A stretch of DNA of 37,378 nt from Thermodesulfobacteriota bacterium (GTDB taxonomy: Bacteria; Desulfobacterota; S145-22), in NCBI GenBank assembly GCA_024763435.1, contig JANTFN010000002.1:1-37378 (forward strand). The letters run 5' to 3'. The position numbers and the translations under genes were made by a program. Shown one piece after another: positions 1 through 13,416 of the stretch (its first letter is position 1; each line of letters starts with the position of its first letter). The notes under the pieces were generated by a model. It saw only the letters and a list, made by a program, of their open reading frames with translations, did no database searches and was not told the DNA's origin.

Positions 1-143
1 TGGTGTGGAAAGAATTGGACGGAACAGGGGGACATACATAAAATTATAAGTTTATAAGGGAAAACAGAGGCGAAAAGAAGAGCATCCTTAAATATTTCAA
101 TAAATATTTGTTCGCGTGTTATTCCTTTGGAAAAAGACAAGGG

Positions 144-205: not shown

Positions 206-523
206 TGCGTCCACTAACAAGGAAGGGTAGGGAATCGGGTATATCCCCGGCGAGCAGGTGGGGATCAGAGGCGGATGTCAGGGTGGCCATCGAGGGAATA
301 GAAAGGGCGCTAAATCTGTCAAGGCTGAAAACCTGATCCCGCAGTATTGCGTTCCCTATAGCACATAATACCTTGCTAATGGGAAAATTGCCGGAGACGA
401 ATTTTGTAGCTCTATTGCAGAATGCGGGAGCGGTAATTTGTCTTTCTAAACAATTTATTGAACGAAGCCGCTATCGCGGCGGGCAATTTTCAGCATTGGC
501 GGTCGAGAGATTACGCTGGAATC

Positions 524-563
524 TTGACATATTGGCCTAAAACATGTACAGCATATAAGTACA
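524..563 (+). promoter_or_regulatory. Putative yefM-yoeB promoter region with TGTACA-type operator cores
   Basis: TTGACA at 524-529 and TTGGCC at 532-537 are candidate -35 boxes. TATAAG at 554-559 is a candidate -10 box, 16 nt after TTGGCC. The palindromic hexamer TGTACA (545-550) and aGTACA (558-563) lie about 13 bp apart centre to centre and overlap the -10 region. An AGGGGG ribosome-binding site precedes the ATG at 583. Confidence 0.5.
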
Positions 564-582
564 GTTTTAAAAGGGGGAAAAT

Positions 583-861
583 ATGTCAATACAGACAACC
601 TATACAAATGCAAGAGCCCGTTTTGCATCGTTAATTGATGAAGTTGTAAAAAACAGGGAGGTTGTTTACATTAAACGGCGTGGTAGCGAGGATGTTGCCA
701 TGATAGCGGCAGACGAATTAGCAGGCATCCTTGAGACCGCACACCTTCTTCGATCTCCTGCCAACGCAGAACGACTCAACTCTGCCCTTGAAAGAGCAAG
801 GAAACAAGAGGGGTTACCTCAGACCATCGATGAACTCCGTAAAGAGGTCGGCCTTGAGTAG
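583..861 (+). CDS. yefM: Phd/YefM-family antitoxin (92 aa)
   Basis: The N-terminus MSIQTTYTNARARFASLIDEV and the segment ETAHLLRSPANAERL are typical of YefM. The size fits, and the gene lies directly upstream of and overlaps a YoeB-like ORF. Confidence 0.9.
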   Translation: MSIQTTYTNARARFASLIDEVVKNREVVYIKRRGSEDVAMIAADELAGILETAHLLRSPANAERLNSALERARKQEGLPQTIDELRKEVGLE

Positions 862-1138
862 CCGGTCTAAATCAAAGAAAAAAAGAGAAGCCATATTTCA
901 GCCTGAGTTCAGGGAAGATTTGCGATACTGGGTTGAGACAGATCGTAGATCGGCCATTCGAATCTTCAAGTTAATCGAGGCAGTCATGCGGGATCCGTTT
1001 CAGGGGATAGGCAAACCAGAGCCTTTAAAGTTTCTCGGCACAGGTGTTTGGTCCCGACGCATTACCCAGGAACATCGACTGGTTTATGTTGTTGGCCACG
1101 ACAGGGTTGATTTTGTGCAGTGCCGTTATCACTATTGA
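854..1138 (+). CDS. yoeB: YoeB/Txe-family mRNA interferase toxin (about 94 aa from a TTG start)
   Basis: The C-terminal 85 aa (FQPEFREDLRYW..DPFQGIGKPEPLK..GVWSRRITQEHRLVY..CRYHY) match the YoeB pattern, including the terminal RYHY. No in-frame ATG lies near the expected N-terminus. A TTG at 854 overlaps the yefM stop codon (859-861). The tracked ORF start at 731 lies deep inside yefM and is unlikely. Confidence 0.8.
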   Translation: MSSRSKSKKKREAIFQPEFREDLRYWVETDRRSAIRIFKLIEAVMRDPFQGIGKPEPLKFLGTGVWSRRITQEHRLVYVVGHDRVDFVQCRYHY

Positions 1139-1176
1139 CACGAATCAGTACAAACAGACAAATAGGGCAAATATAA

Positions 1177-1243
1177 CGTCCTTGAATAATTCAATTCAAT
1201 TCAAATAGCAGAGATACGGTATAAAGAAAGTTTAGGAAACAGT
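1177..1243. repeat. Direct repeat, copy 2 (downstream flank of the yefM-yoeB cassette, upstream of the STAS gene)
   Basis: 67 nt: cgtccttgaataattcaattcaattcaaatagcagagatacggtataaagaaagtttaggaaacagt. It is the same as copy 1 apart from one extra ATTCA unit and a few substitutions. Confidence 0.85.
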
Positions 1244-1259
1244 ATTTCCGCGTCATAAC

Positions 1260-1288
1260 TTGACACACCCCTTGCCTGCCTGTTAAGA
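1260..1288 (+). promoter_or_regulatory. Weak candidate sigma70-type promoter for the STAS-led gene cluster
   Basis: TTGACA (1260-1265), a 17-nt spacer, then TTAAGA (1283-1288). An AAGGGGG ribosome-binding site precedes the ATG at 1315. The -10 box is poor. Confidence 0.3.
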
Positions 1289-1314
1289 AACAAACTTGCA
1301 AAGGGGGTAAAATT

Positions 1315-1656
1315 ATGGAGATATCCCGTGAAACAGTCAATGGCGTGGACGTGGTCAGGTTTTCGGGACGCTTAAATACGACCAGTGCCCCGGACGCGGA
1401 AAAGAAAATTACGACTATCATAGAGGAAAATCCACAGGCGCTTCTCGTCAATCTGGCAGCGGTGGATTACATCAGCAGTGCCGGATTGCGGGTGCTGCTT
1501 CTCGGCGCGAAGATGATGGAAAAAGGGAAGGGGGCGCTGGGGCTTTGTTGTCTTCAAAATGCGGTCAAGGAGGTTTTTGATATCTCTGGGTTTACTGCTA
1601 TTTTCCGCATCTTCAATTCTGAGGACGCCGCGATTAAAGAGATAATGGCTGCATGA
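1315..1656 (+). CDS. STAS-domain anti-sigma-factor antagonist (SpoIIAA/RsbV-like, 113 aa)
   Basis: Size and motif VDYISSAGLRVLL, with the conserved serine (S54/S55) in the position of the SpoIIAA/RsbV phospho-serine, followed by KEVFDISGF. Confidence 0.9.
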   Translation: MEISRETVNGVDVVRFSGRLNTTSAPDAEKKITTIIEENPQALLVNLAAVDYISSAGLRVLLLGAKMMEKGKGALGLCCLQNAVKEVFDISGFTAIFRIFNSEDAAIKEIMAA

Positions 1657-2987
1657 GCGCGTCTTTAATCGAGAGCGCTATGCCTGTTTCGCTGAATACG
1701 TTTGCGGATGCGAGGTTTCTTCCGCTTGTCCTGTCCGTGGTGGAAAACGGCTGCAGGGCCCTGGGGGCCGGGAAGGCGGAAGCTCTGAAGCTGGTACTTT
1801 CCAGTGAGGAAATTTTTTCTCACCTTGCCTCTGTTTTGCCGGAAAAAACACCGCTTCAACTTGGGATTTCAACGGGGATTTACTATGATCAGGTGGAGAT
1901 GTCGGTTCCCGTTGGGAACGTTGATCTTCGGGCCCTGAATCTTACGGCAAGCGTTTCTCCGGAAAGAGCGGGAGACCTTGAGGACATGGGGCTTTTAATC
2001 GCGGCCCGGTCCGTGGATCACCTCCGTATCCTGAAAAACGAAAGCGGGGGCATTACCTTCCGAATTATCAAGGAACGGGCTTATCCTGAGGCAGAAGTTA
2101 TGCCGGATTTGGAAATACCGGAAGAGGCCCGAGAGATGACCGTAACGGCTGCCGAGCCAGAGGCCTTGAAGGCCTTTGTTTATTCTTTAATCAGACACTA
2201 CGAACCCGAGGCGTTTCCGGGCGCGTTCGCCTATCCGGGCAAACTGGTCGATATGATGAGGGGCGGGACGTATGGCAACCTGATCGCGCAGAATCGTGCA
2301 AAAGGGGTGCTGTATGGCGGGGTTGCCTGGCATGTCTTGAATAAACGCGTGGTGGAATGTTTTGGCCCTTATGTTTTTGTAAAAAAGGGTCGGAAAGAAG
2401 TCACGCGCGCCCTGCTGGACGGGGTTGTCGGGAAAATTGCCCGAACCCACGCCCTGGGGCTTATCAACCGGTTCCCTACCCGGGAAATGCCAACGGGATA
2501 TTTTGAGCAGCTCGGAACGGTCATGGATTTTGCGAAAACCGCCGAGGGGCGCGAATGCCCTTATTACTATCGCCTTCTCGACGAAGATCTGGGATCTAAG
2601 GTCTGGGCCACCCCGGAAATTGAAGCCTTTTTAAGAGCGGCCTTCCAGCGGCTTGTGTTGCCGAGGGAAGCCGTGATAACCCACAATGAGGGGGAGCATC
2701 TTCCCGCCCATTCCGTTATCGCGACTGAATTTGAACACCCCATGAAACGCGCCATCCTCCGTCCCATGCTGCTGGGGGAAGACAAGGCCGAAATCCTCAA
2801 CAGCCATGTTGCCGCGCTCGGAGGAGAAGCCATCGGCAATATCCTGTTTGAACTTGACCTTGGAATTTCTTCCAATGCCCTCTGGATTCCCGCGCTTATC
2901 CGGCAGCGTTTTGCCCCGAGGGTCCTCCTGCCGTATGCCGGGAAAGGCGACATCATCGTTTTTCAGTATGACGCAACCGCCGCTTAA
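1653..2987 (+). CDS. Unknown 444-aa protein: N-terminal degenerate RsbW-like (HATPase-like) domain fused to a GNAT-like region
   Basis: ATGA overlap with the STAS gene. Residues ~10-145 align collinearly by eye with the 135-aa kinase encoded at 11045. The kinase motifs are lost: N-box ALVNII becomes IFSHL, G1 DWGIPF becomes PVGNVD, and G2 GGMG becomes EDMG. The C-terminal ~290 aa resembles the protein encoded at 9970-10989. Confidence 0.7.
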   Translation: MSASLIESAMPVSLNTFADARFLPLVLSVVENGCRALGAGKAEALKLVLSSEEIFSHLASVLPEKTPLQLGISTGIYYDQVEMSVPVGNVDLRALNLTASVSPERAGDLEDMGLLIAARSVDHLRILKNESGGITFRIIKERAYPEAEVMPDLEIPEEAREMTVTAAEPEALKAFVYSLIRHYEPEAFPGAFAYPGKLVDMMRGGTYGNLIAQNRAKGVLYGGVAWHVLNKRVVECFGPYVFVKKGRKEVTRALLDGVVGKIARTHALGLINRFPTREMPTGYFEQLGTVMDFAKTAEGRECPYYYRLLDEDLGSKVWATPEIEAFLRAAFQRLVLPREAVITHNEGEHLPAHSVIATEFEHPMKRAILRPMLLGEDKAEILNSHVAALGGEAIGNILFELDLGISSNALWIPALIRQRFAPRVLLPYAGKGDIIVFQYDATAA

Positions 2988-4074
2988 TCAACTCGTTCCT
3001 GCCTATATCCGAGGGTTTGAGGCCTATATTCCCAGCAAACCCGATCCGGAGCTCATGAAGCTGTATGGCTGCTCCCGGATTTTCAGGCTGAATAATAACG
3101 AAAATCCCCTGGGGCCGCCACCCGCGGCCCGCCGGATTATTAAAGACTTTATTCCCTTCAAGGCGTCCATCTATCCCAGCGGGGATGCCTATTACCTGCG
3201 AACCAGGCTGGCCGAGCGATTCGGGTTCCACCCCGATCAATTTATTGTGGGGAATGGTGCCAATGAAGTCATCGCCTTTGTAATCAAGGCCTTTTGCCAG
3301 GAAGGGGACAACATTATCACCGCGGACAAGACCTTTGCCGTTTATGAATGGGTTGCCGAATTTTCCGGGTTCGAGGCGCAACTTGTTCCCCTGAAAGGGT
3401 TTGGATTTGACGACGCGGCAATGCTGGAGCGTATTAATGAACGGACCAAAATCCTCTTCGTCTGCAACCCCAACAACCCGACAGGAAGCTACTGGCCGGA
3501 GGAAAGACTGCGGAATTTTCTTGACCGAATTGACGGCCGGCAGATTGTGGTGGTGGATGAGGCCTATTTCGAATTTCTTGATCAACCAGATTATCCCGAC
3601 GGGATGAAACTGATTGCAGATTACCCCAACCTCGTTGTCTTCCGGACATTTTCCAAGATGTATGGACTGGCGGGGCTGCGAATCGGATACCTCGCGGGAA
3701 GCATGGACGTGGTGGATATCATCCGGCGGACCTGTGTGGTTTATTCCGTGAATGTGGTCGCCCAGGAGGCCGCGCTCGCCGCCCTGGATGACCCGGAGCA
3801 CATCCTGAAGACCCGGGCGCTGATTCGGGAAGAGAAGGCCTTTGTTACCCGTGAACTCGACGCGATGGGGATTCCCTATGTAAGCGGAGAGGCAAATTTC
3901 ATGATGATAAAACTGCCCATCAGCGATACCCTGGCCTATCGGAAGATGATGAAAAAAGGGGTGATGATTCGTTCGATGACGGGATTTCGGTATCCCAATT
4001 ACATCCGCCTGACCCTTCACACCCACGAGGCGATGGAGGCCTTTGTGGCGGCCCTGCGAGAGGTGGTGACATGA
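2968..4074 (+). CDS. hisC: Histidinol-phosphate/aromatic aminotransferase family protein (PLP-dependent, 368 aa)
   Basis: Motifs NNNENPLGPP, NPNNPTG and FSKMYGLAGLRIGY (PLP lysine). I placed the start at the ATG at 2968 (MTQPPLNQLVPAYIRGFEAY), not at the tracked 2806, which would run through the previous gene. Confidence 0.85.
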   Translation: MTQPPLNQLVPAYIRGFEAYIPSKPDPELMKLYGCSRIFRLNNNENPLGPPPAARRIIKDFIPFKASIYPSGDAYYLRTRLAERFGFHPDQFIVGNGANEVIAFVIKAFCQEGDNIITADKTFAVYEWVAEFSGFEAQLVPLKGFGFDDAAMLERINERTKILFVCNPNNPTGSYWPEERLRNFLDRIDGRQIVVVDEAYFEFLDQPDYPDGMKLIADYPNLVVFRTFSKMYGLAGLRIGYLAGSMDVVDIIRRTCVVYSVNVVAQEAALAALDDPEHILKTRALIREEKAFVTRELDAMGIPYVSGEANFMMIKLPISDTLAYRKMMKKGVMIRSMTGFRYPNYIRLTLHTHEAMEAFVAALREVVT

Positions 4075-6377
4075 GCCTTGTTCATGCCCGACCCCTCCAG
4101 ATCGGGGAATCTGAGCCGCGTGCCGACGCCCCCGCCAAGGCGGCAGGTCGTGAGCGCTACGCGATAGACTTTTACGAAGAAGGAATGCTCTGGGCCGGTG
4201 TTAAGCGGGCTGATATTCCCCATGCCGTCTTTGATGGGATCGACGTGGAGGCCGCCCTGAAAGTGCCGGGCGTTGTCGATATTCTCACGGCGAAGGATAT
4301 TACCGGGTCCAATCGCCAGGGAGTGGCGCGTCGCGACCAGCCTGTTCTCGTGGATGACAGGATTCGGCACCGGGGGGACGGTGTGGGCCTCGTCATCGCG
4401 GAGAACCGGGAGGCGCTGCGCACCGCTGTTCAGCGTATTACCGTCAAGGCCACTCCTTTGCCGGGGGTGTTTGATTTTGAGACCGCCCTCCGGGAAGACG
4501 CCCCGCGGATTCACGAAGACCACCCGGATGGGAATATTCTCCTCAAGGGACATCTCGAGACCGGTGACGGCACTGCCGCGTTCAAGGCCTGCGCGCATGT
4601 GGTGGAGGCTATTTTCGAGCTCCCGTATCAGGAACACGCCTATCTCGAAACCGAAGCGGGCTGGGCCGTTACGCGGGAAGACGGCACAGTAGAAATCACC
4701 GCTTCCACGCAAACCCCGTTTCGGGACCGGGCAGAAATAGCCGAGGCACTGGGGATTGAGGAGGAGAGGATTCGTGTCATTGCTCCCTTCTGCGGCGGGG
4801 CCTTTGGCGGTAAGGACGGCATCACGGTCCAGAGCCTTCTCGCCCTGGCGGCCCTGAAATACCCGGGGCGTCCCGTCAAGATGTGGTGGGAACGGGAGGA
4901 AAGCTTTGTGGCAAGCGCGAAACGCCACCGCGCCCGGTGCCATTACCGCCTCGGGGCCGGTGCCGACGGGCGGTTCCACGCCCTGGCGGCGGAACTCTTC
5001 TATGATACCGGCCCCTACGATCATCTCGGTGGCGCGGTCATGGCCCTCGGGTTGGAGCACACGGGCGGCCCTTACCGCATCCCCAATACCTGTTTGAAGG
5101 CGTGGGCGATTTACACGAACAACCCTGTCGGCGGCGCCTTTCGGGCCTTCGGAATCGCGCAGGCTACTGCCGCGATGGAACAGATGGTGGATATGCTGGC
5201 GGAAAAGGCCGGGTATTCTCCGCTGGAAATCCGCCGGATCAACGCCGTCAACCAGGGCGACAAAACCCCCTTGGGCGTTACTCTTCAGACCTCCACGGGG
5301 ATTGTGCAATGCCTTGAAATTCTTCAGGAGCATCGGATGTGGCGGGACCGCGCGGTCTGGAAAAATGAGGCGGGCCCCTTTAAAAAAAGGGGCGTGGGGC
5401 TTGCCGCCGTCATGCATGGCATGGGGTATGGGCCGGTTATCCCCGATGTTGCCAATGCCCGGATTGAACTGACCCACGACGGTCGCTTTCAGGTTGCCTG
5501 CGGGGTTGTGGACATGGGTCAGGGAAATGCCAGCACGTTTCTCCAGATAGCCGGGGATATCCTTTCGCAGGACAGGAAACACCTGACACTTGTCTTGCCG
5601 GATACGGCACGGACCCTACCCTCCGGCTCCGCCTCCGCCAGCCGGACGACCTACACCTACGGCAACGCCCTCATTAAGGCAACGTTTCTCCTCAGGGAAC
5701 GGGTCCTTAAACGCTGCGCGGATCTTATGATGGTCTCCGATCTCGGGGAGCTGGCACTTATCCCGGGTGCGGTTTGCCATGTCACGACGGAAAGGGAATT
5801 TGCGCTGGGCGAAATTGCCCGGGTGATGGACGGGAACGAGCGTGTGGCCGTCGCGCACTTTCGCGCCCCCCAGTCGTGCGAGCTTCCCGATATTGATCCC
5901 AATCTCCGGCTTCACGGAATTCCCCATGTTGTTTTTTCCTATGGGGCGCACCTCGCCGGCGTGGAGGTAGATCTGCTCACCGGCGACATCGCCGTTAAAC
6001 AGTACCTGGCGGTCAGTGATTGTGGCCGAATTCTCAACCCCCAGCTTTTTGAGCAGCAGGTTCAGGGGGGGATTGCCCAGGGGCTGGGTTACGCCCTGAT
6101 GGAGGAAATTCCGGTGGAAAAGGGGGAGATGAAGACCCTTAATTTCTCGACCTATCTCCTCCCGACCGCTCTCGACATTCCCGATATGACGGTTATCACC
6201 GCGGGGGGACATGAAGCAACCGGTCCCTACGGGTTGAAGGGCGTGGGGGAAATGCCCACCAGCGGTCCGCTCCCCGCCGTGGCCAACGCCGTGGCCGATG
6301 CCTGTGGAATCCGACTGCGCCACTTTCCCATGACACCCGAGCGGGTCCTTGCGGCGCTCAAAAAGGAACGTCCATGA
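4071..6377 (+). CDS. Xanthine dehydrogenase/aldehyde oxidase-family molybdopterin-binding large subunit (768 aa)
   Basis: The length fits. Motifs: N-terminal GESEPRADAPAKAAGRERYAIDF, GGAFGGK, and the GVGE active-site region near the C-terminus. The start makes an ATGA overlap with hisC. Confidence 0.9.
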   Translation: MSLVHARPLQIGESEPRADAPAKAAGRERYAIDFYEEGMLWAGVKRADIPHAVFDGIDVEAALKVPGVVDILTAKDITGSNRQGVARRDQPVLVDDRIRHRGDGVGLVIAENREALRTAVQRITVKATPLPGVFDFETALREDAPRIHEDHPDGNILLKGHLETGDGTAAFKACAHVVEAIFELPYQEHAYLETEAGWAVTREDGTVEITASTQTPFRDRAEIAEALGIEEERIRVIAPFCGGAFGGKDGITVQSLLALAALKYPGRPVKMWWEREESFVASAKRHRARCHYRLGAGADGRFHALAAELFYDTGPYDHLGGAVMALGLEHTGGPYRIPNTCLKAWAIYTNNPVGGAFRAFGIAQATAAMEQMVDMLAEKAGYSPLEIRRINAVNQGDKTPLGVTLQTSTGIVQCLEILQEHRMWRDRAVWKNEAGPFKKRGVGLAAVMHGMGYGPVIPDVANARIELTHDGRFQVACGVVDMGQGNASTFLQIAGDILSQDRKHLTLVLPDTARTLPSGSASASRTTYTYGNALIKATFLLRERVLKRCADLMMVSDLGELALIPGAVCHVTTEREFALGEIARVMDGNERVAVAHFRAPQSCELPDIDPNLRLHGIPHVVFSYGAHLAGVEVDLLTGDIAVKQYLAVSDCGRILNPQLFEQQVQGGIAQGLGYALMEEIPVEKGEMKTLNFSTYLLPTALDIPDMTVITAGGHEATGPYGLKGVGEMPTSGPLPAVANAVADACGIRLRHFPMTPERVLAALKKERP

Positions 6378-6853
6378 AAATATCCTTTGCGCTGAACGGC
6401 AGACCTGTTACCCGCGACCTTCCGCCGGACCGGCGGGTTGTCGATGCCTTGCGGGAGGACCTGGGACTGCCTGGAACCAAGGAGGCGTGTGGGACCGGAG
6501 AATGCGGGGCCTGCACGATCCTCGTGGATGGGGTTCCCAGACTCTCCTGCCTGATGCTTGCCGCCCAACTCGAAGGCAGGAAAATCACGACCATTGAGGG
6601 CATCGGCAAAGCAGAAAAGCCGCATCCCGTTCAGGAAGCCTTCGTCGAGGCCGGCGCGGTCCAGTGCGGTTTCTGTACCCCCGGGATGGTACTTACCGCA
6701 GTTCATTTCCTTGAGGAAAATCCCGGGCCTACCCGGGAGGAAATACGTGAAGCCCTGAGCGGGAACATCTGTCGATGCACTGGTTATCAGAAGATCGTGG
6801 ATGCCGTTGAACTGGCATCAAAAAGATTGTCTAAAAAAGGGACAACAGAATGA
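6374..6853 (+). CDS. [2Fe-2S]-binding small subunit of the molybdenum hydroxylase (159 aa)
   Basis: Cysteine motifs CGTGECGACT, CGFCTPGM and CRCTGYQKI. ATGA overlaps on both sides. Confidence 0.95.
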   Translation: MKISFALNGRPVTRDLPPDRRVVDALREDLGLPGTKEACGTGECGACTILVDGVPRLSCLMLAAQLEGRKITTIEGIGKAEKPHPVQEAFVEAGAVQCGFCTPGMVLTAVHFLEENPGPTREEIREALSGNICRCTGYQKIVDAVELASKRLSKKGTTE

Positions 6854-7710
6854 AGGTCTTTCTTCCGGGAACGCTTGAGGACCTCTGGGAACGGTGGGAA
6901 AAAATTCCCAACGCCCGGATTTACGCCGGTGGGACCGACTTTATGGTCAAACTGCGCGAAGGGGCGATTCAGGCTCCTGCCCTGATTTGTCTTGAACGTA
7001 TTCCCGCCCTGACGAAAATCAGAGAGGAAGAAAATACCCTCTTCATTGGGGCAGGGGTTTCTCATGCCGGGATTCTTACCCACCCCCTTGTTCAAACCTG
7101 GTGTCCTGTCCTGGTGGAAGCCCTGCGCGTCCTGGGATCTCCCCTTATCCGGAACATGGGAACCCTCGGGGGTAATATCGCTACTGCGTCTCCAGCAGGA
7201 GACAGCCTCCCCGCCCTCTACGTTCTGGATGCGGAAGTCGTTCTTGCTGATGCTCGTAAAACCCGGGTACTGCCCATAAGCGATTTTATTTTGAGCCCCG
7301 GGAAAACCAGTTTGAAGGAACGGGAAATCATTCGCGGTGTCCGAATCCCCAGGCCCATGCCTTACACCATGTCCCGCTATGAAAAGGTTGGGAAACGGAA
7401 GGCTATGGCTGTCGCGGTTGCGAGCCTGGCCGCCTGTCTTCGATTTGACACGAACGGAGTAGTGAAAATCGCCCGCCTCGCCTGGGGAAGTGTGGGCCCG
7501 ACTATTGTGACGGCTTCCCGAGTCGAAAAGGCGCTTGTGGGATTTCCTCTCAGCCGAAAGCACCTGGAAGAAATTGCTCCGATGGTGGAAGAGGCTGTTT
7601 CTCCTATTGACGATATTCGCGCCAGCGCGGTTTACCGGAAAAAAATAGCCATCAACCTTTTGTGCCGGCTTGCGGGAGACAGCAATTTCAATGGGAGGTT
7701 CACACCATGA
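6850..7710 (+). CDS. FAD-binding medium subunit of the molybdenum hydroxylase (CoxM/XdhB-like, 286 aa)
   Basis: Motifs AGGTDFMVKLR, GTLGGNIATASPAGD and a C-terminal SAVYRKK-type segment. Confidence 0.9.
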   Translation: MKVFLPGTLEDLWERWEKIPNARIYAGGTDFMVKLREGAIQAPALICLERIPALTKIREEENTLFIGAGVSHAGILTHPLVQTWCPVLVEALRVLGSPLIRNMGTLGGNIATASPAGDSLPALYVLDAEVVLADARKTRVLPISDFILSPGKTSLKEREIIRGVRIPRPMPYTMSRYEKVGKRKAMAVAVASLAACLRFDTNGVVKIARLAWGSVGPTIVTASRVEKALVGFPLSRKHLEEIAPMVEEAVSPIDDIRASAVYRKKIAINLLCRLAGDSNFNGRFTP

Positions 7711-8891
7711 CAGAACGGGGAAAACTCCTCACCCGGGATTTCCTTGTCCTGAATTTTATCATCTTTCTAACCTACTGTAATATCGCGGTATTTTTTCAGC
7801 TCCACGAGTATCTCCTGCATATCATCCACACCTCCCAGGAAGAGGCCGGATTCCTTATCGGGGTCTTTGCCCTCACGGCCCTGATCATCCGCCCCTTCAT
7901 CAGCCCATTCCTGCGGCCGGAAAATGCCCGTAAATGGATCCTTACCGGTGCGGTCGGCGTGGGCATCGCTCTCCTCTTTTATCACCTGGGCAGGGGATTT
8001 GCCGGGATGGCTGCCATTCGGATCATTCACGGGACCTTCTACGTCATCATGGCCACCGCGGTCATGGCGAGAATGGTAGCCTGTATTCCAAAGAATCGGA
8101 GCGCTGAAGCCTTCGGAATCATTTCTGTTATCACGCTTCTTCCCTATGCGGTCCTTCCTCCCCTGATCAATCCCCTCATCACCTGGTTCGGCGGTTTTCT
8201 CCCCGTCTTGGACATAACAGCCCTGTTGATGATTCCAATCCTCCCTCTGTTGGCCCTGATACGTCCTGTCGAAGAGGGAGGAGGGAAGCAAAGTGGAAGA
8301 CTTGCTGTTACCGAATTGAAGGAAAATCTTAAAAACAGACGGATAGTCGGTTTGCTCATCATTTCTCTCTTTGTTTTTACCGCCTTTACCCCTGTTTTCT
8401 ATTTTCTCAAGGGCTACGCGAGGAGTATTGGCATCCGGAATGCCGGGTGGTTTTTTACCATTTCAACTGCTGTGGAAATCCTTGTCCGGCTTATAGGGGG
8501 AAAATTTATGGACCGGGGAGACAAGCCCAGGATCCTCCTTTTTGCGCTGATTCTTCTTCTAACAGGCTATCTCATCCTCGCTCACACTTCATCACACCTT
8601 CTTTTCTATGCCCTCGCTCTTCTTTTCGGGCTGGCATGGGGTATTGCCCTGCCCATCCTGAATGGCCTTGTTTTTGACTACTCTTCTCCCAGATTGCGGC
8701 CACTCAACGCAAACCTGGGGCTTGAGATGTTTCAGGGCGGGTTTTTTCTCGGCCCTTTCCTCGGCGGAATTTTTCTGGCAACAGGGTCTTACCGCACCCT
8801 TTATTACGTTTGCGGCGGCCTGATTATTGTCGCCCTCGCCATGTTGCCCCTGCTGACCTCACCCAAAAACGTCAGGGAGGAAACGATATGA
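7707..8891 (+). CDS. MFS-type transporter (394 aa)
   Basis: About 12 hydrophobic segments. The start is at ATG 7707 (MTERGKLL), preceded by GGGAGG, and makes an ATGA overlap with the FAD subunit stop codon. Confidence 0.8.
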   Translation: MTERGKLLTRDFLVLNFIIFLTYCNIAVFFQLHEYLLHIIHTSQEEAGFLIGVFALTALIIRPFISPFLRPENARKWILTGAVGVGIALLFYHLGRGFAGMAAIRIIHGTFYVIMATAVMARMVACIPKNRSAEAFGIISVITLLPYAVLPPLINPLITWFGGFLPVLDITALLMIPILPLLALIRPVEEGGGKQSGRLAVTELKENLKNRRIVGLLIISLFVFTAFTPVFYFLKGYARSIGIRNAGWFFTISTAVEILVRLIGGKFMDRGDKPRILLFALILLLTGYLILAHTSSHLLFYALALLFGLAWGIALPILNGLVFDYSSPRLRPLNANLGLEMFQGGFFLGPFLGGIFLATGSYRTLYYVCGGLIIVALAMLPLLTSPKNVREETI

Positions 8892-9970
8892 TAATTGTCT
8901 GGACCGCAGGGATTTTCTTCATTCTCTTCATCCTTGTAGAAAGCTTTGCCCGCCTTTATCATCGTTTTCGATTCAAAATTCCCTTTCACTCGCGGGTTAT
9001 GGGGGAATATCCCTACAGCCAATTCGTGGAGCAGACTGATCCGCCGCTCTTCTACCGTTTTAAAAAGGGGTTTCGATCGCCCATGATTCATATCAACCGG
9101 TTTCGGTGCCGGGGAGAAGAACCTGCAGAAGACGGACAGAAAAAGCGGATTATGTTGATTGGTGAATCGATGTATTTCGGTGTTAAACTAAGGCATGAAA
9201 AAGAGCTTTGGTCATGCCGGCTGGAACATCTCCTTAAGGAACATGGTTATTCGAACTGGGAGGTTATCAACGCGGGGAACCCCATGTACAACAGCGTTCA
9301 GCACAGGCTTCTATGGGAACAGGACCTGTGCAGGGCAAAACCGGACATCCTCCTCATCAACATGGGGGGAAATGATGTTACCCAGGCCTGGATGATGGGT
9401 GCTCAATGGGAACCGGGCGCGCCCTGGCCCTGGAATTTTATCACGGCTTTGGAAAGAAAATCTCCCTGGTGGAACAAATTCCTTTCACGGTTCTGCTTTT
9501 ACTTTCTTCTTCGAAGAAGCATAACAGCGCGACGGCCCTTTTCCCGTCAGGACGAAATCTTCAAGTGGGAACAGTGCCTGAAAACGATTCACGAGAATTT
9601 TATATCTATCGCCGAGGATGCGGAGAAGGCAGGAGCAAAAGTGGGCTTTATCAGTTTTGCTCCTGCAAGCGACAAAGCCCCAAGGTCGGAAGACCACCCG
9701 AAACTGGAGGCGATTCAATCAAACTGGAAAACATTTGCAGAAGGAAGCTTTCCATACGTCTACCAAATGAACGATTCTTTCCGGGAGGATGTATGCCCGC
9801 AATACGGCTGCCCCTATATTGATCTGATGAAGGTTTTTCACGCCTGTCCGAACCGTTACGAACTTTTCTTTGATATCGGGCACTGGAATGCGGGGGGTAT
9901 GCGGGTCGTCTCGAACACCATTTTTGAGGAACTCGAAAACCTGAGATGGCTTGAAAGAGGAAAAAAGTAA
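8888..9970 (+). CDS. SGNH/GDSL-like hydrolase with an N-terminal membrane anchor (360 aa)
   Basis: N-terminal transmembrane segment IIVWTAGIFFILFILV. Block I LIGESM (GES in place of GDS), block III MGGNDV, block V DIGHWN (DxxH). ATGA overlap with the MFS gene. Confidence 0.7.
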   Translation: MIIVWTAGIFFILFILVESFARLYHRFRFKIPFHSRVMGEYPYSQFVEQTDPPLFYRFKKGFRSPMIHINRFRCRGEEPAEDGQKKRIMLIGESMYFGVKLRHEKELWSCRLEHLLKEHGYSNWEVINAGNPMYNSVQHRLLWEQDLCRAKPDILLINMGGNDVTQAWMMGAQWEPGAPWPWNFITALERKSPWWNKFLSRFCFYFLLRRSITARRPFSRQDEIFKWEQCLKTIHENFISIAEDAEKAGAKVGFISFAPASDKAPRSEDHPKLEAIQSNWKTFAEGSFPYVYQMNDSFREDVCPQYGCPYIDLMKVFHACPNRYELFFDIGHWNAGGMRVVSNTIFEELENLRWLERGKK

Positions 9971-10989
9971 TGGAGAAGGAAATCCAGCCCGGACAGGATG
10001 TATTGATAGACCGCTTTCGTCCGGAAGACGCGGAGGGGGTCGCTAACCTTTTTATCTCTGTTTACGGGGAGGGGTATCCCATTCGGGCCTACGTGGAGCC
10101 GGAACGTCTCAGGGAAGAAAATGCTGCCGAAACCATTATTTCGAGCGTGGCACGGACACCCCGGGGAGAGATTGTCGGTCACAATGCCCTGTTCAGGAGC
10201 GCGCCCCATGCGGGTGTCTATGAATCGGGCGCCGGCCTGGTCCATGAAAACTACCGGGGCGGAAAGGGAGTCTTCACAGAAATGGTTGCCCACGGGCAGG
10301 AACTGGCCCAAAAAACACCTGCCGTCGAAGGCATCTTCGGCGAAGCGGTCTGTAACCATGTTTTTTCCCAGAAACTGACCCATGGGTTGGGATGGAAAAG
10401 CATGGCTGTTGAGGTGGATCTCATGCCCGCCGCTGCTTATGTAAAGGAGAGGAGCGCCCGGGGACGGGTGGCTTCGATTCTTGATTTCAAGACAATTCGT
10501 CCCAGGACCGTCCGCGCCTGCCTGCCTGCCGTTTATGAAAAAGAACTGCAATTTATCTATGATGGCATGGATGATGAGAGAAATCTGGTTCCCTGCAAGG
10601 GATCCCCCCCCGATTCCGTGGAAACCCGCATTGAAAGCCGGTATTTCGAGTTTGCTAACGTGGCCCGGCTGGCCGTTTGGGAAATGGGAAAGGATTTCGC
10701 ACAGGCTTTCCCGGCCCGCGAGAAAGAGATGCTGAACCGGGGAGCAGCGATTACCCAGGTCTGGCTCAACACCGGCGTTCCCTGGTGCGGATGGGCCGTT
10801 GAAATTCTGAGAGATAAAGGGTATTTTCTGGGCGGGGTTCTTCCCCGATGGTTTGACAGTGACGGGTTGCTCATGCTCCGAATTCTACACCGTCCTTTCT
10901 GGGAAGAGATGCGGGTGCATTACGAGCGTGCCCGGAAAATCGTGGCTATCGCCAGAAATGACTGGCAGCGCCTCGGAAAAGAAACCTGA
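9970..10989 (+). CDS. GNAT-family acetyltransferase-like protein with a C-terminal extension (339 aa)
   Basis: N-terminal GNAT pattern (RFRPEDAEGVANLF ... IVGHNALF ... YRGGKGVFTEMV). The start overlaps the previous stop codon by 1 nt (TAATG). Confidence 0.7.
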   Translation: MEKEIQPGQDVLIDRFRPEDAEGVANLFISVYGEGYPIRAYVEPERLREENAAETIISSVARTPRGEIVGHNALFRSAPHAGVYESGAGLVHENYRGGKGVFTEMVAHGQELAQKTPAVEGIFGEAVCNHVFSQKLTHGLGWKSMAVEVDLMPAAAYVKERSARGRVASILDFKTIRPRTVRACLPAVYEKELQFIYDGMDDERNLVPCKGSPPDSVETRIESRYFEFANVARLAVWEMGKDFAQAFPAREKEMLNRGAAITQVWLNTGVPWCGWAVEILRDKGYFLGGVLPRWFDSDGLLMLRILHRPFWEEMRVHYERARKIVAIARNDWQRLGKET

Positions 10990-11044
10990 TTGCGCCGGGA
11001 TTTTCGGGGTGGACAGAAAAAGCCGCCTTTTACGTGGAGGTGAA

Positions 11045-11452
11045 ATGAGGCAAATTATATTGCCGGCCAGGCTGAAAAACCTTGGAGAACTTATTGGTTT
11101 CGTTTCGGCCTGTGCAGAGGATTACGGCCTTTCTCCGGAAAAGATTGGAACGATTGAACTGGCAGCGGAAGAGGCCCTTGTTAATATCATCCGCTACGCC
11201 TATCCGGAAAAGCCGGGGGAGATCGAAATATATTGTCATCAAAACGAAACGGTTTTTATGATTACCTTCAAGGACTGGGGCATTCCCTTCAACCCGCTTT
11301 CCAGGCCGGACCCGAACACGCATCTTTCCCTCGCGGAGCGGCAGATTGGCGGGATGGGAATTTTGCTGATTAAAAAAATGATTCCCGAAGTCCGGTATAA
11401 GCGGGAAAGCCGGACGAATATCCTCTCCTTTGTTATTCCGGAAGAAAAATAA
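11045..11452 (+). CDS. Anti-sigma regulatory factor-type Ser/Thr kinase (RsbW/SpoIIAB-like, 135 aa)
   Basis: Intact N-box (EEALVNIIRYA), G1 (DWGIPF) and G2 (GGMGILLIKKM). GGAGGTG precedes the ATG at 11045. The tracked start at 10853 overlaps the previous gene. Confidence 0.85.
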   Translation: MRQIILPARLKNLGELIGFVSACAEDYGLSPEKIGTIELAAEEALVNIIRYAYPEKPGEIEIYCHQNETVFMITFKDWGIPFNPLSRPDPNTHLSLAERQIGGMGILLIKKMIPEVRYKRESRTNILSFVIPEEK

Positions 11453-11463
11453 AAAGTGTCGCC

Positions 11464-13416
11464 GTGGGGAAAATGAGGTTGTCAAACAGTATTGAAAAAA
11501 GACTTGCCCTCTGGGTTATTTCGAGTGTTTCCATTATTCTTGCCTTTTCACTGGGGTACAATTACACGGTTTCCAAAAGGCTTATCACCCGGGAAATCGA
11601 GGGAAAGGCCATGGAAACCCTGCGGGCGACCATCAACCGTATGGATATCATTTTTTTTTCCATGGAAAAAGCCACAAAAACCCTGGCCATCCCAATGGAA
11701 GATCGCCGTGTTGCCTCGAATAAAGAGAATATCTTTTTTCTCCTCCAGCGGGTTGTTGCCGAAAACAGGGAAGTTTATGGGAGTACTGTGGCGTTTGAAC
11801 CCTACGCTTTTGATTCCCACCGCCGTTTTTTCGCGCCGTATTATTACAAACACGGCGGCAAGCTGAGTTTCAAGTATATTCCATACAATTACTTCGCGTG
11901 GGGCTGGTACATGATGCCCACGCTCCTCCACCGAGCCGTTTGGGTGGAGCCGTATTTTGATAAGGAAGCGGGAAATATTGTGATGTCCACCTATTCCGTT
12001 CCCCTCTACAGGGCGGATCCGGATAAGAAGGAATTTTTTGCGGTTGCCACGGTGGATGTGTCCCTCGCGTGGCTGCAGAGTATTGTTTCATCTATTAAGA
12101 TAGGGCACACGGGGTATGGTTTTCTTATTTCGAAGAAGGGAACCTTTGTGACCCATCCCGCCAGCCGTCTCGTCATGCGGAAGACTATCTTTGAAGTTGC
12201 CAGAGAAAGGGGAGACAAGGCCCTGTTGAACATCGGCCTGGAAATGATTCGGGGAAAAACCGGGTTTGTTCCCTATGCCGGCCCCTTTGTGAAGAAACCC
12301 GCCTGGTTGGCCTATGCCCCCTTGCGTTCCAACGGCTGGTCCCTCGCGATTATCTTTCCCCGGCAGGAACTTCTTGGAGATGTTCAAAAGCTGAACCGGC
12401 AGATTTTATTTATCAGCCTGCTGGGATTTTTCTTTTTGATGCTTGTCATCGCGTTGATTGCAAAAGGGATTACCCGGCCCCTGCGCTTTCTTGCCGTGGC
12501 GGCCGACCGGATTGCCACGGGTGAATGGGAAACCCCGCTCCCTCCTATTCGAAACGATGATGAAGTCGGGAAATTGACACAATCCTTTGAACACATGAAG
12601 ACCTCACTGAAAAAGTATTTCAATGACCTGAAGGAAACCACGGCGGCACGGGAAAGGATAGAAAGTGAATTAAGGATCGCGAGGGATATCCAGATGGGTC
12701 TTGTCCCCAAGGTGTTTCCGCCTTTCCCGGAAAAGAAAGAATTTGAAATCCACGCCATTCTTGAACCGGCACGTGAGGTGGGGGGCGACCTGTATGATTT
12801 TTTCTTTACCGATGAAACCCACCTTTGTTTTCTTGTGGGGGATGTTTCCGGTAAGGGGGTCCCCGCTGCGTTGTTTATGGCCATGGCCAAGACGCTGATT
12901 AAGTCGACCGCCGCAGGTAAAATCGATCCCGCCGTCATTGTCCGGATGGTAAATCGTGACCTGGCCGCGGATAACCCCTTTGTGATGTTTGTCACGCTGT
13001 TTCTCGGGATTCTCGACATCAAAACGGGGGCCCTGAGTTATTGTAATGGCGGGCATAACCCCCCGTTCCTCCGCCACTTTAATGGAGAGATTTCCCCCCT
13101 TGCGTCAACACACGGTCTCGCCCTCGGCGTTTCAGAAGACTTCACTTACACATCCAGCCAGATCGACCTCCAGCCTCGGGATGTCCTCTTCGTTTATACC
13201 GATGGTGTCACGGAAGCCATGGACCCGCTGGGGGGTCTCTTTGGTGAACAAAGGCTTCAAAACACGTTGTCTGAAATGGGGGAAATAACCGTTCAGGAAA
13301 TAAACGATACTGTCCTAAAAACGGTTTCTGATTTTGCGGATACGGCGCCCCAGGCAGATGATATCACCCTGCTTACCCTGAAATTTAATCAAAAATCTAA
13401 ATCATCGCCGATATAG
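11464..13416 (+). CDS. Membrane sensor PP2C phosphatase: Cache-like periplasmic domain, HAMP, SpoIIE/PP2C (RsbU-like, 650 aa)
   Basis: N-terminal transmembrane segment, ~280-aa extracytoplasmic region, second transmembrane segment ILFISLLGFFFLMLVIALIA, HAMP (DEVGKLTQSFEHM), and PP2C motifs GGDLYDFF, VGDVSGKG, GGHNPP, YTDGVTEA and DDITLL. The start is GTG 11464 or ATG 11473. Confidence 0.9.
   Translation: MGKMRLSNSIEKRLALWVISSVSIILAFSLGYNYTVSKRLITREIEGKAMETLRATINRMDIIFFSMEKATKTLAIPMEDRRVASNKENIFFLLQRVVAENREVYGSTVAFEPYAFDSHRRFFAPYYYKHGGKLSFKYIPYNYFAWGWYMMPTLLHRAVWVEPYFDKEAGNIVMSTYSVPLYRADPDKKEFFAVATVDVSLAWLQSIVSSIKIGHTGYGFLISKKGTFVTHPASRLVMRKTIFEVARERGDKALLNIGLEMIRGKTGFVPYAGPFVKKPAWLAYAPLRSNGWSLAIIFPRQELLGDVQKLNRQILFISLLGFFFLMLVIALIAKGITRPLRFLAVAADRIATGEWETPLPPIRNDDEVGKLTQSFEHMKTSLKKYFNDLKETTAARERIESELRIARDIQMGLVPKVFPPFPEKKEFEIHAILEPAREVGGDLYDFFFTDETHLCFLVGDVSGKGVPAALFMAMAKTLIKSTAAGKIDPAVIVRMVNRDLAADNPFVMFVTLFLGILDIKTGALSYCNGGHNPPFLRHFNGEISPLASTHGLALGVSEDFTYTSSQIDLQPRDVLFVYTDGVTEAMDPLGGLFGEQRLQNTLSEMGEITVQEINDTVLKTVSDFADTAPQADDITLLTLKFNQKSKSSPI

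Follow-up and report, generated by a model that had tools for sequence, protein, structure and literature searches.

A putative post-translational partner switch at an amino-acid-related gene cassette of a Thermodesulfobacteriota bacterium

Partner switches that act on an enzyme instead of a sigma factor have been described in Pseudomonas aeruginosa. The SiaABCD system comprises the PP2C phosphatase SiaA, the kinase SiaB, the STAS-like protein SiaC and the diguanylate cyclase SiaD; unphosphorylated SiaC binds and activates SiaD, an enzyme from the same operon, and no sigma factor is involved (PMC7647112; PMC8457831). In the HptB-HsbR-HsbA-HsbD system of the same organism the STAS antagonist HsbA binds the diguanylate cyclase HsbD directly and in a phosphorylation-dependent manner, and SiaC-SiaD and HsbA-HsbD are both established direct-binding switches onto enzymes (PMC7647112). 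In Mycobacterium smegmatis the kinase homolog RsbW3 is listed with the anti-SigF antagonists and not as an anti-sigma factor (PMC7693655, PMC10950880).

The locus described here lies in a window (the whole stretch of DNA that was analysed) of 37,378 nucleotides. It combines a complete partner-switching module (G1, G10, and G11) with a conserved amino-acid-related cassette in one operon-like unit, and the reading that we favor, at about even chances, is that the module controls the cassette after translation.

The gene train and its leader

Eleven genes (G1 to G11) occupy one strand (+) from 1315 to 13416, where the train stops at a convergent gene. The features are as follows:

1139..1314 (+): intergenic leader, 176 nt, following the YoeB toxin gene and preceding G1
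1315..1656 (+): G1, single-domain STAS protein of the anti-sigma-factor-antagonist type, 113 aa (PF01740, E 4e-19; TIGR00377, 79 bits)
1653..2987 (+): G2, soluble protein, proposed output of the switch, 444 aa (fold and profile evidence)
2968..4074 (+): G3, HisC-family PLP aminotransferase, 368 aa (PF00155, E 1e-56; TIGR01141, 303 bits, cut-off 276)
4071..6377 (+): G4, molybdopterin-binding large subunit of a xanthine-dehydrogenase-family hydroxylase, 768 aa (PF02738, PF20256, PF01315)
6374..6853 (+): G5, small subunit with two [2Fe-2S] clusters, 159 aa (PF01799, E 3e-35; PF00111)
6850..7710 (+): G6, FAD-binding medium subunit, 286 aa (PF00941, E 2e-47; PF03450)
7707..8891 (+): G7, MFS transporter, 394 aa (PF07690, E 2e-42; at least 10 hydrophobic segments)
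8888..9970 (+): G8, membrane-anchored SGNH/GDSL hydrolase, 360 aa (PF13472, 38 bits, cut-off 32.9)
9970..10989 (+): G9, tandem GNAT-like acyltransferase, 339 aa (weak GNAT assignment, based on structure)
11045..11452 (+): G10, RsbW-type serine kinase, 135 aa (PF13581, HATPase_c_2, E 2e-27)
11464..13416 (+): G11, membrane sensor phosphatase, 650 aa (PF07228, E 1e-50; PF22673, PF02743, PF00672)

The junctions listed in an earlier note on this DNA were all found on re-reading: ATGA overlaps at 1653, 4071, 6374, 6850, 7707, and 8888, one of TAATG at 9970 and one of 20 nt at 2968–2987, the largest intergenic gap being indeed 55 nt (10990–11044) and the other one 11 nt (11453–11463). Internal promoters or terminators that might split the train were sought by sequence scan and neither exceeded shuffled controls (10 promoter-like matches vs. 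9.5 and 16 terminator-like matches vs. 22, all of them in coding sequence). The overlaps and this lack of motif excess suggest that G1 to G11 form a single operon-like unit. The leader, the sole sizeable non-coding stretch ahead of the train, is a candidate promoter region; it contains a perfect TTGACA at 1260–1265 but a poor -10 element, a TGACAC-N5-TTGC match at 1261–1275 that is not above chance, and no match to an Rfam family. A YoeB toxin gene lies upstream of it.

Switch proteins, G2, and the cassette

The switch components named in the earlier note are present at both ends of the train. G1 (structure matches by phmmer: SpoIIAA, RsbV, RsfB) carries the expected serine motif, Y(I/M/V)SSAGLR, which occurs in 16/16 cassette-linked STAS proteins. 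Its Ser55 (codon 1477–1479), predicted from this alignment to be the phospho-acceptor, aligns with a SpoIIAA position which is Ser in one entry and Ala in an otherwise identical variant, and which we take to be the phospho-serine. G10 retains, in alignment with Bacillus subtilis RsbW, the N box (EEALVN), the G1 box (DWGIPF) and the G2 box (GGMG), as do 16/16 cassette-linked homologs, and judged by these motifs the kinase appears catalytically intact, as had been claimed. The Cache-HAMP-PP2C architecture proposed for G11 was likewise recovered (dCache-HAMP-SpoIIE); hydropathy and domain matches place TM1 at residues 14–32, a periplasmic dCache domain at ~93–296, TM2 at 314–332, HAMP at 331–383, and the PP2C/SpoIIE domain at 451–641.

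G2 had been described as GNAT-like, which is correct for its tandem GNAT-like module (residues ~150–443, nt 2100–2981) but overlooks a second, degenerate domain at residues ~6–145 (nt 1668–2087) that resembles RsbW/SpoIIAB. Neither the G2 nor the G9 family rises above threshold in Pfam and NCBIfam searches. The AF2 model of G2 (pLDDT 87.9, pTM 0.85) has as best Foldseek matches RsbW (6m37/6m36), UsfX (8ih8), and SpoIIAB (1til/1l0o/1th8) with E 3e-7 to 1e-5 and TMt 0.72–0.84, followed by GNATs. Profile comparison by hhalign relates residues 6–131 to the RsbW (G10) family of the operon itself (prob 97%, E 1e-10) and residues 150–443 to the G9 family (prob 94%, E 1e-7); moreover, the G10 HMM directly matches several G2 homologs, and four homologs have a precomputed PF13581 (HATPase_c_2) match. 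The position of the N-box Asn is occupied by Tyr (61), His (14) or Phe (5) in G2 homologs and by Asn in 0/80, and the column of the G1-box Asp in G10 faces a non-Asp column of G2, residue losses that mark the N-terminal domain as a pseudokinase. Its mean column conservation equals that of the remainder (0.55 vs. 0.54), thus it is under selection.

Between the switch genes lie the aminotransferase, molybdenum hydroxylase, MFS transporter, and SGNH hydrolase reported previously, all identified by Pfam or NCBIfam. The nearest structures to G3 are histidinol-phosphate and phenylalanine aminotransferases. G4, G5, and G6 make up a three-subunit enzyme of the xanthine-dehydrogenase family (Mo, 2Fe-2S, and FAD subunits); the best NCBIfam match of G4, pucD, reaches 528 bits, under the equivalog cut-off of 784, and its nearest structures are nicotinate dehydrogenase, 4-hydroxybenzoyl-CoA reductase, and aldehyde oxidoreductase. 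A MATE protein replaces G7 in Firmicutes loci, and G8, with one N-terminal hydrophobic segment (residues 2–20), is found in ~10/80 related loci. G9 is a paralog of G2, the relationship covering the C-terminal two thirds of that protein. In its AF2 model (pLDDT 90.3, pTM 0.88) the N-terminal half matches GNATs of the amino-acid N-acetyltransferase type by Foldseek (3igr, 2j8m, 1yr0, 5jtf; TMt 0.68–0.76), and its family (>1300 members, all annotated "hypothetical", with 0 Pfam matches) has an invariant YRG inside VHxxYRGGKGIF that resembles an acyl-CoA loop, conserved in G9 but absent from the GNAT-like module of G2. G9-like proteins also occur as fusions, to an AMP-dependent ligase in locus L078 and, independently of G2, to an intact, Pfam-significant HATPase_c_2 domain in L067, so that the combination of an RsbW domain with a GNAT recurs.

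Related loci and the target of the switch

The cassette was compared in 80 related loci from Desulfobacterota, Firmicutes syntrophs, and others. G3 is immediately downstream of G2 in 79 of them (extrapolated gap -20 to +11 nt; identity 65–86%), and in the metagenomic protein P0272, whose contig occurs in two samples, the two form an in-frame fusion of 813 aa. The question of whether the switch genes always flank the cassette is answered in the negative: STAS, RsbW, and PP2C genes adjoin it in 20/80 loci (8/35 of those with full flanks), in at least six arrangements and in both Desulfobacterota and Firmicutes, while in ~75% of the cases the 10 kb around the cassette are free of switch genes and yet the pseudokinase domain is kept. 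Strong matches to switch genes were found always at the cassette border and nowhere else in the ~20 kb flanks. An ATGA overlap joins the STAS gene to G2 in this train and in three relatives (L001–L003), the kinase gene directly overlaps the G2 start in five (L006, L011, L020, L029, L051), with no STAS gene in between, and the phosphatase gene adjoins it in two (L049, L080). The module had been said to be split around the cassette; this is true here, with ~9.4 kb of metabolic genes in between, but not in general. STAS-RsbW-(SBP)-PP2C are contiguous in most relatives that have switch genes, hence the split is derived and specific to this small clade; it arose once more, independently and in another form, in L049. 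L003 repeats the 11-gene order at 52–83% protein identity. The earlier note had stated that no sigma factor is present; a Pfam scan of the larger ORFs of the 37-kb window found none, nor was one found beside the switch genes in the 20 related loci.

Since the first protein of the cassette contains a copy of the switch kinase that is catalytically dead, the target of the switch is probably metabolism itself and not transcription. The non-transcriptional output suggested earlier thus gains support that is specific though indirect, because G2, whose gene overlaps that of STAS, joins an RsbW-like pseudokinase domain to a GNAT-like module, because it is coupled and once fused to the aminotransferase, because the switch genes recur at cassette borders in two phyla, and because a sigma factor adjoins them in no locus. 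A periplasmic ligand bound at the dCache domain would set the activity of G11, which jointly with G10 would determine the phosphorylation of Ser55. Unphosphorylated STAS would then dock on the N-terminal domain of G2 which, devoid of ATP/Mg-binding residues, would hold it with neither phosphorylation nor release, altering either the activity of the GNAT-like module or the grip of G2 on G3 and so gating entry into a pathway that would also include G9, the xanthine-dehydrogenase-family hydroxylase, and the exporter-type transporter. Both STAS-G2 binding and the direction of regulation are inferred from sequence. The missing acyl-CoA loop of G2 speaks against a GNAT-like module tuned by STAS.

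A conventional anti-sigma circuit, in which G10 sequesters a remote sigma factor and STAS and PP2C relieve it, is rather unlikely. The module would then sit in the cassette for co-expression only, for example because the cassette makes or consumes the signal or belongs to the regulon, and the RsbW-like domain of G2 would be an ancient one that serves dimerization or as a scaffold and has no link to the switch. None of the kinase and anti-sigma motifs is lost from G10, so that this intact protein could truly act as the anti-sigma factor of a sigma from another part of the genome; STAS proteins 51–58% identical to G1 are generic, orphans among them, and occur in unrelated gene contexts, so G1 is not of a cassette-dedicated lineage, phylogeny does not reveal its target, and there is room for a sigma factor or other target elsewhere. 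In addition, since most cassettes keep the pseudokinase domain with no switch genes nearby, this domain may have a switch-independent role, for instance dimerization. The same points weigh against the reading that we favor. The lack of a sigma factor in the window and beside the switch genes of 20 loci argues against such a circuit, as does the start-to-stop coupling of each of the three switch genes to G2 in some lineage, which would be puzzling if G2 had no part in the switch; the RsbW fold in exactly the cassette protein that adjoins the switch genes would be a coincidence.

G2 might instead take the place of the sigma factor, G10 pairing with its pseudokinase domain through the RsbW-type dimer interface and keeping G2 (and G3) inactive until unphosphorylated STAS binds G10 and thereby releases G2. 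Kinases of the RsbW/SpoIIAB type work as dimers, the two domains are homologous, and the five loci with a kinase gene overlapping G2 fit such a putative heterodimer; in this train, however, the gene coupled to G2 is that of STAS, and the sequence data do not separate this pairing, which we consider quite improbable, from STAS-G2 docking. That switch genes and cassette are independent neighbors, brought together by the abundance and mobility of partner-switch genes in these genomes, would agree with a STAS protein that is not cassette-specific, with the variable arrangements, and with the 75% of cassettes lacking the module, but it is very hard to reconcile with switch genes exactly at cassette borders in 20/80 loci and nowhere else in the flanks (chance adjacency ~1%, a rough estimate and not a computed value), with the ATGA overlaps and 11–55-nt gaps, or with the gene order repeated in L003.

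Comparison with described partner switches

The best structural matches to the GNAT part of G2 and the first half of G9 are GNATs of the amino-acid N-acetyltransferase type (PA4866/YncA/phosphinothricin acetyltransferase/ArsN, RimJ), with identity of just 12–18%; unlike these, G9 and G2 carry one more alpha/beta domain at the C-terminus as well as conserved motifs of their own. RsbW1/2/3 of M. smegmatis are a precedent for non-kinase roles of RsbW homologs in a partner switch, although these paralogs still feed the sigma factor SigF and, unlike G2, have no fused enzyme-like domains.

With the Bacillus modules RsbU/RsbV/RsbW-sigmaB and SpoIIE/SpoIIAA/SpoIIAB-sigmaF the train shares three protein families and their motifs (STAS Ser, GHKL N/G1/G2 boxes, PP2C), and the N-terminal domain of G2 superposes on RsbW and SpoIIAB. 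In contrast to them, it has no sigma factor gene, its switch genes are ~9.4 kb apart across metabolic genes, and a second, catalytically dead kinase-like domain is fused to a GNAT-like module. HptB-HsbR-HsbA-HsbD receives its input through a phosphorelay that leads to a fusion of response regulator, PP2C and kinase, and its output is c-di-GMP signaling, whereas in the present train a dCache-HAMP-PP2C sensor provides the input and the output is proposed to lie within a metabolic operon. In SiaABCD, as proposed for this train, the phosphorylation state of an antagonist-like protein depends on a small kinase and on a PP2C phosphatase in the membrane; the phosphate goes to a Thr of a DUF1987-type protein in the former and, by prediction, to a classical STAS serine here. 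SiaABCD acts on a GGDEF cyclase that lacks a kinase-like docking domain, while the presumed output of this locus is a protein with an RsbW-like pseudokinase domain, encoded in a metabolic cassette together with aminotransferase, GNAT, and Mo-hydroxylase genes.

The gene train and its partner-switch proteins

Eleven ORFs on the forward strand (G1–G11) form a train spanning 1315–13416, and all starts, stops and junctions listed for it in the earlier note were reproduced exactly. A STAS gene (G1) opens the train and genes for an RsbW-type kinase (G10) and a PP2C phosphatase (G11) close it; these three are referred to here as switch genes. Between them lies a metabolic cassette encoding a 444-aa protein (G2), an aminotransferase (G3), three Mo-hydroxylase subunits (G4–G6), a transporter (G7), a hydrolase (G8), and a 339-aa GNAT-like protein (G9). 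Six junctions are ATGA overlaps (1653, 4071, 6374, 6850, 7707, and 8888), one is a TAATG overlap (9970) and one an overlap of 20 nt (2968–2987), and G10 and G11 are preceded by gaps of 55 and 11 nt, respectively. Gene order and junctions suggest a single operon-like train. Promoter- and terminator-like matches within it show no excess over shuffled controls and all fall in coding sequence, and no sigma-54 or sigma-70 promoter signal rises above shuffled controls upstream of G1. A search with Rfam for a riboswitch or leader RNA that might name a metabolite yielded only two tRNAs for the window and no match for seven related loci.

GC content reaches 0.60–0.63 over the Mo-subunit gene (4001–6000) against 0.44–0.50 in the flanks and 0.48–0.52 over the kinase and phosphatase genes; the rise may stem from the amino acids encoded or from a separate origin of the Mo-enzyme genes. 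The 3' end of the train abuts a convergent methyltransferase gene, and the remainder of the window encodes AcrB, Era, RodZ, RuvABC, and YebC in addition to the following features:

583–1138, forward strand: YefM (Phd) antitoxin/YoeB toxin pair, directly upstream of the train and 176 nt from the STAS gene
23044–23115 and 23748–23820, reverse strand: two tRNA genes flanking a 169-aa ORF without a Pfam match
23873–26575, reverse strand: HDOD-HisKA-HATPase-receiver hybrid kinase
28005–31916 and 32170–36207, reverse strand: two tandem giant paralogues (1303 and 1345 aa) with CARDB and Kre9/KNH-like Ig domains

G1 is a single-domain STAS antagonist (PF01740, E 4e-19) whose Ser55, in the DSSG-like loop, aligns with a column occupied by Ser in one SpoIIAA entry and by Ala in its otherwise identical variant, which we take to be the phospho-serine position. 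The surrounding SSAGLR motif is kept in all 16 cassette-linked STAS proteins. G10 is a HATPase_c_2 kinase (PF13581, E 2e-27) in which the N, G1, and G2 boxes of Bacillus subtilis RsbW are all present by alignment, as they are in 16 of 16 G10 homologues. G11 is a dCache-HAMP-SpoIIE (PP2C) phosphatase (PF07228, E 1e-50 across the full profile), and its sensor is extracytoplasmic, because the Cache domain lies between two hydrophobic segments in the hydropathy profile. The locus thus holds the STAS protein, the kinase and the PP2C phosphatase with input domain of an RsbV/RsbW/RsbU-type partner-switching system but not the linked sigma factor; the earlier note had reported none, and a Pfam scan of the 37 kb bears this out, with no match to a sigma-factor family among the larger ORFs. 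Judging from their sequences, G1, G10, and G11 would constitute a switch based on phosphorylation and dephosphorylation of Ser55.

The pseudokinase-bearing protein G2 and its relative G9

Members of the G2 family are proteins of ~440 aa named "hypothetical" in databases, a few JGI entries reading "anti-sigma regulatory factor." G2 has no Pfam or NCBIfam match above threshold, the gathering threshold of PF13581 included, and a precomputed PF13581 match exists in only 4 of 78 homologues. When an AlphaFold model built from 35 homologues (pLDDT 87.9, pTM 0.85) was compared with the PDB by Foldseek, RsbW, UsfX, and SpoIIAB ranked at the top (E 3e-7 to 1e-5; target TM 0.72–0.84 over about 135 aligned columns), followed by ordinary GNAT acetyltransferases. 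In hhalign comparisons the G10-family profile aligned to G2 residues 6–131 (probability 97%, E 1e-10) and the G9-family profile to residues 150–443 (probability 94%, E 1e-7), and the G10 and G9 HMMs each detect G2 homologues directly. The kinship of G2 and G9 is visible with profiles only, direct BLASTP between the two giving no match, and a search of PDB sequences with the G2 profile gave only a marginal match (RsbW 8jzt, E 1.8).

The N-terminal domain (G2-N, residues ~6–145) thus shows the RsbW-type Bergerat/GHKL fold and homology. It lacks the residues that a kinase needs for Mg-ATP binding: where the N box of G10 (EEALVN) has the Asn that binds Mg, G2 has His (EEIFSH), and over 80 G2 homologues this position is Tyr in 61, His in 14, Phe in 5, and Asn in none, while the Asp column of the G1 box in G10 faces a non-Asp column in G2, as read at profile level only from the hhalign alignment. 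Because these catalytic motifs fail, G2-N is called RsbW-like rather than a kinase. Its mean column conservation nevertheless equals that of the rest of the protein (0.55 vs. 0.54), with or without switch genes nearby. Fold, profile homology, lost catalytic residues and equal conservation together identify G2 as a fusion in which a tandem GNAT-like module follows a pseudokinase domain of the RsbW-like kind. The "GNAT-like" label of the earlier note was therefore apt for the second part of the protein but overlooked the dead RsbW-like domain.

The module at G2 residues ~150–443 has a GNAT-like fold, is homologous to G9 and has lost the acyl-CoA loop: where G9 retains the acyl-CoA-loop-like motif YRGGKG (with invariant Y95-R96-G97, and one residue longer than R/Q-x-x-G-x-G/A), the G2 family has the consensus FGPYxF and beyond it no conserved residues. 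G9 represents the module as a separate, paralogous protein. It has no Pfam or NCBIfam match above threshold (Acetyltransf_3, 17 bits vs. a cut-off of 25), and a search of PDB sequences with its profile gave marginal matches only (dopamine N-acetyltransferase, E 0.01). Its model (pLDDT 90.3) has the GNAT fold and retrieves many GNATs with Foldseek (E 5e-9 to 1e-7, TMt 0.68–0.76), amino-acid N-acetyltransferase-type enzymes being the closest in structure. G9 relatives in two related loci (L067 and L078) score 26–28 bits with Acetyltransf_1, above the cut-off of 20.7 bits. All members of the G9 family are unnamed.

Conservation and chemistry of the cassette

A neighbourhood scan with one genome per species and an alignment of 14 sequences returned 80 loci with a G2 homologue (L001–L080). 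They occur in Desulfobacterota (Syntrophorhabdaceae, Syntrophobacteraceae, Smithella, Desulfobacteraceae, Desulfatiglans), in Firmicutes (Syntrophomonas wolfei subsp. methylbutyratica, Pelotomaculum, Dethiobacter, a Veillonellaceae MAG), and in Acidobacteriota and Methylomirabilis. A wider profile search with G2 found 721 representatives at 50% clustering (E ≤ 0.001), of which 296 reach E ≤ 1e-30; nearly all are proteins of 420–460 aa that match from end to end. A 543-aa "extended" homologue (P0229) was set aside, its low-complexity tail marking it as read-through after a frameshift.

G3 directly follows G2 in 79 of the 80 loci (extrapolated spacing -20 to +11 nt), and in the sole locus without a G3 match the contig stops about 250 nt past G2. 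Identity to the window proteins is 65–86% for G3 but only 33–61% for G2. The two are also found as one polypeptide: P0272 (813 aa, L081:2093–4534) is an in-frame G2::G3 fusion whose residues 442–799 are 59% identical to G3 (E 4e-156); its contig was found in two samples, and a distant G9 homologue and a ThiF-family gene precede the fusion. Because of this conserved adjacency and the fusion, G2-G3, usually with G9, is taken as the core unit. Mo-enzyme genes, a transporter and G9 usually follow in varying order, the transporter being of the MFS type but MATE in Firmicutes. Genes for XdhC-like and MocA-like maturation proteins occur in some related loci, and G8 in about ten of the 80. Two further fusions involve G9-like modules, one with an AMP-dependent acyl-CoA-type ligase (861 aa, L078:93–2675) and one, of GNAT type, with a motif-intact HATPase_c_2 domain significant in Pfam (E 2e-24; 544 aa, L067:1832–3463). 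RsbW-type domains have thus become joined to this type of GNAT more than once.

G3 is a HisC-type aminotransferase (TIGR01141, 303 bits vs. an equivalog cut-off of 276.55); its family also includes aromatic aminotransferases, and histidinol phosphate is a putative substrate here. G4–G6 belong to the xanthine-dehydrogenase family, with Mo-pterin, 2x[2Fe-2S], and FAD subunits all recognized by Pfam. Assignment as xanthine dehydrogenase, nicotinate dehydrogenase, 4-hydroxybenzoyl-CoA reductase (4-HBCR), CO dehydrogenase, or aldehyde oxidoreductase failed, all NCBIfam equivalog scores being far below their cut-offs (the best, pucD, 528 vs. 784). By eye the Mo-enzyme protein contains GGAFGGKD, GAFRAFG, and GVGE, which in bovine XDH numbering would presumably correspond to retention of Arg880 and Glu1261 and to Asp in place of Glu802. 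4-HBCR was set aside on the FAD subunit as well, which matches the 4-HBCR beta subunit weakly and partially (118 bits vs. 404.55); that subunit carries an extra Fe-S insertion, for which the 286-aa FAD subunit seems too short. G7 is an MFS transporter and G8 an SGNH hydrolase with a single N-terminal anchor.

A speculative pathway can be drawn from these parts. G3 might form or consume an amino acid or amine, which G9 might N-acylate, a reading prompted by the ligase fusion and the structural neighbors of G9; the Mo enzyme might hydroxylate a ring, and the product might be exported by the exporter-type MFS or MATE protein, the SGNH hydrolase possibly stripping the acyl group outside the cell.

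Some cassettes adjoin genes for amino-acid or peptide uptake (Liv ABC, CstA, M1 aminopeptidase). Other signaling genes take the positions of the switch genes in some cassettes, namely SBP_bac_3-PAS-GGDEF inside one (L019:17505–20177), and dCache-GGDEF-EAL (L080:13023–15380) and PAS histidine kinases (L072:7073–9379 and 15868–18447) in or beside others. Since such signaling and uptake genes accompany cassettes, the picture fits a pathway responding to external amino-acid-type cues. In L080, from a Firmicutes MAG, an NRPS fragment with A-T-C domains (1–5112) and a 4'-phosphopantetheinyl transferase gene (5425–6132) lie directly upstream of a STAS-RsbW-SBP-PP2C-G2-G3 block. A 579-aa multi-pass membrane protein (L054:7929–9668), encoded just upstream of a G2 cassette, matches the G10 HMM over its C-terminal ~120 residues (460–576).

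Linkage of the switch to the cassette and its possible output

Strong HMM matches to G1, G10, or G11 occur in 20 of the 80 loci, and to all three in 11; of the 35 loci whose flanks extend 8 kb or more in each direction, 8 have a switch-gene match. The switch genes always lie directly at the cassette border, with no strong match elsewhere in the flanks. STAS overlaps G2, with RsbW-PP2C at the far end, in the window and in L003, with L001 and L002 being truncated; a STAS-RsbW-(NMT1-type binding protein)-PP2C block follows the last cassette gene in L005, L022, L026, L064, and L078, and precedes G2 in L080 and L029; RsbW alone overlaps the start of G2 in L006, L011, L020, and L051; and the blocks are divergent or convergent in L031, L010, and L015. 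Because most linked loci keep the three genes contiguous beside the cassette, the split in the window is a derived feature of a small clade. Splitting occurred independently once more, in another form, in L049, where binding protein-PP2C lies ahead of G2 and STAS-RsbW behind G9. Neighbors of the switch genes include Smr, metallo-beta-lactamase, PfkB, Pat-like acetyltransferase, solute-binding proteins, and PPTase. In most related modules an NMT1/THI5-like periplasmic binding protein gene stands between RsbW and PP2C (L005:11907–12878, with equivalents in L026, L031, L049, L064, L078, and L080); the window has none, its RsbW and PP2C genes being 11 nt apart.

The expectation that switch genes always flank the cassette does not hold, about three quarters of the cassettes having none within 10 kb. 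Nor is the STAS protein a cassette-dedicated clade: homologues 51–58% identical to G1 sit in unrelated contexts (L082–L086), one being an orphan with a xanthine/uracil-permease-family gene on one side and ApbA on the other, another lying after an Amt-GAF-PAS-SpoIIE-HATPase_c_2 giant, so the STAS is generic and recruited. Both points limit what can be concluded on the link between switch and cassette. The post-translational output on a cluster enzyme proposed in the earlier note is supported in part: it gains from the pseudokinase nature of G2 and the recurrent linkage, and loses from the generic STAS and the many cassettes without switch genes.

A scheme in which G11 and G10 act through STAS on G2 is the most economical, and most likely, reading of the locus. 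How far Ser55 is phosphorylated would depend on G10, the kinase, and on G11, the phosphatase with the dCache sensor; unphosphorylated STAS would bind the pseudokinase domain of G2 and be held there, as it would not be phosphorylated and hence not released; and its binding would alter how the GNAT-like module of G2, or a G2-G3(-G9) complex, behaves at the pathway's entry step. Both the STAS–G2 contact and its sign are what we infer, as is the chemistry. Tentatively, and as a possibility only, the RsbW-like domain of the G2 family could be a portable, kinase-dead reader of the STAS phospho-state, wiring partner switches onto G2-G3-G9 as a metabolic regulator or enzyme complex.

An ordinary anti-sigma circuit whose sigma factor is encoded elsewhere, with G2-N serving only as a scaffold, is compatible with the generic STAS and the intact G10, but no sigma factor lies beside the switch genes in 20 related loci and the explanation is judged unlikely. 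Doubtful to a greater degree is a G10/G2-N heterodimer disrupted by STAS, with G2 in the place of sigma; the loci with RsbW alone against G2 would suit it, but in the window the gene coupled to G2 is that for STAS. That switch genes and cassette are unrelated neighbors, as the many unlinked cassettes might suggest, is very improbable given the recurrent position at the border.

Partner switches are among the commonest bacterial signaling modules, and no target is known for most of the orphan ones, those lacking a nearby sigma factor. The locus offers such a switch a concrete candidate target, a dead-kinase-bearing protein permanently coupled to an aminotransferase. If the portable-reader view is true, it would represent a new class of partner-switch output in which a domain derived from an anti-sigma kinase takes the place of sigma. 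If STAS docks on G2, an extracellular signal would control a metabolic entry step directly and rapidly in syntrophic anaerobes, and the pseudokinase-as-receiver principle could help assign targets of other orphan modules. The analysis also defines a widely distributed cassette (G2-G3-G9 with Mo-hydroxylase and exporter-type transporter) and two uncharacterized families, G2 (about 300 clusters at 50% identity) and G9 (>1300 proteins), for which the portable-reader view, if true, would provide a first functional handle in syntrophic anaerobes.

The literature search returned no paper with both RsbW and GNAT, with an RsbW-GNAT fusion, or with the G2-G3-G9 cassette. RsbW paralogues with non-canonical roles are described for Mycobacterium smegmatis. 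Partner switches that act on an enzyme by direct binding are already established: SiaA/B/C control the diguanylate cyclase SiaD in this way, with no sigma factor (PMC7647112; PMC8457831), and HsbA controls HsbD (PMC7647112). The likeness to these systems lies in an output other than a sigma factor; unlike SiaD or HsbD, the presumed output here is a kinase-dead RsbW-like domain joined to a GNAT-like regulator of an aminotransferase, within a metabolic operon.
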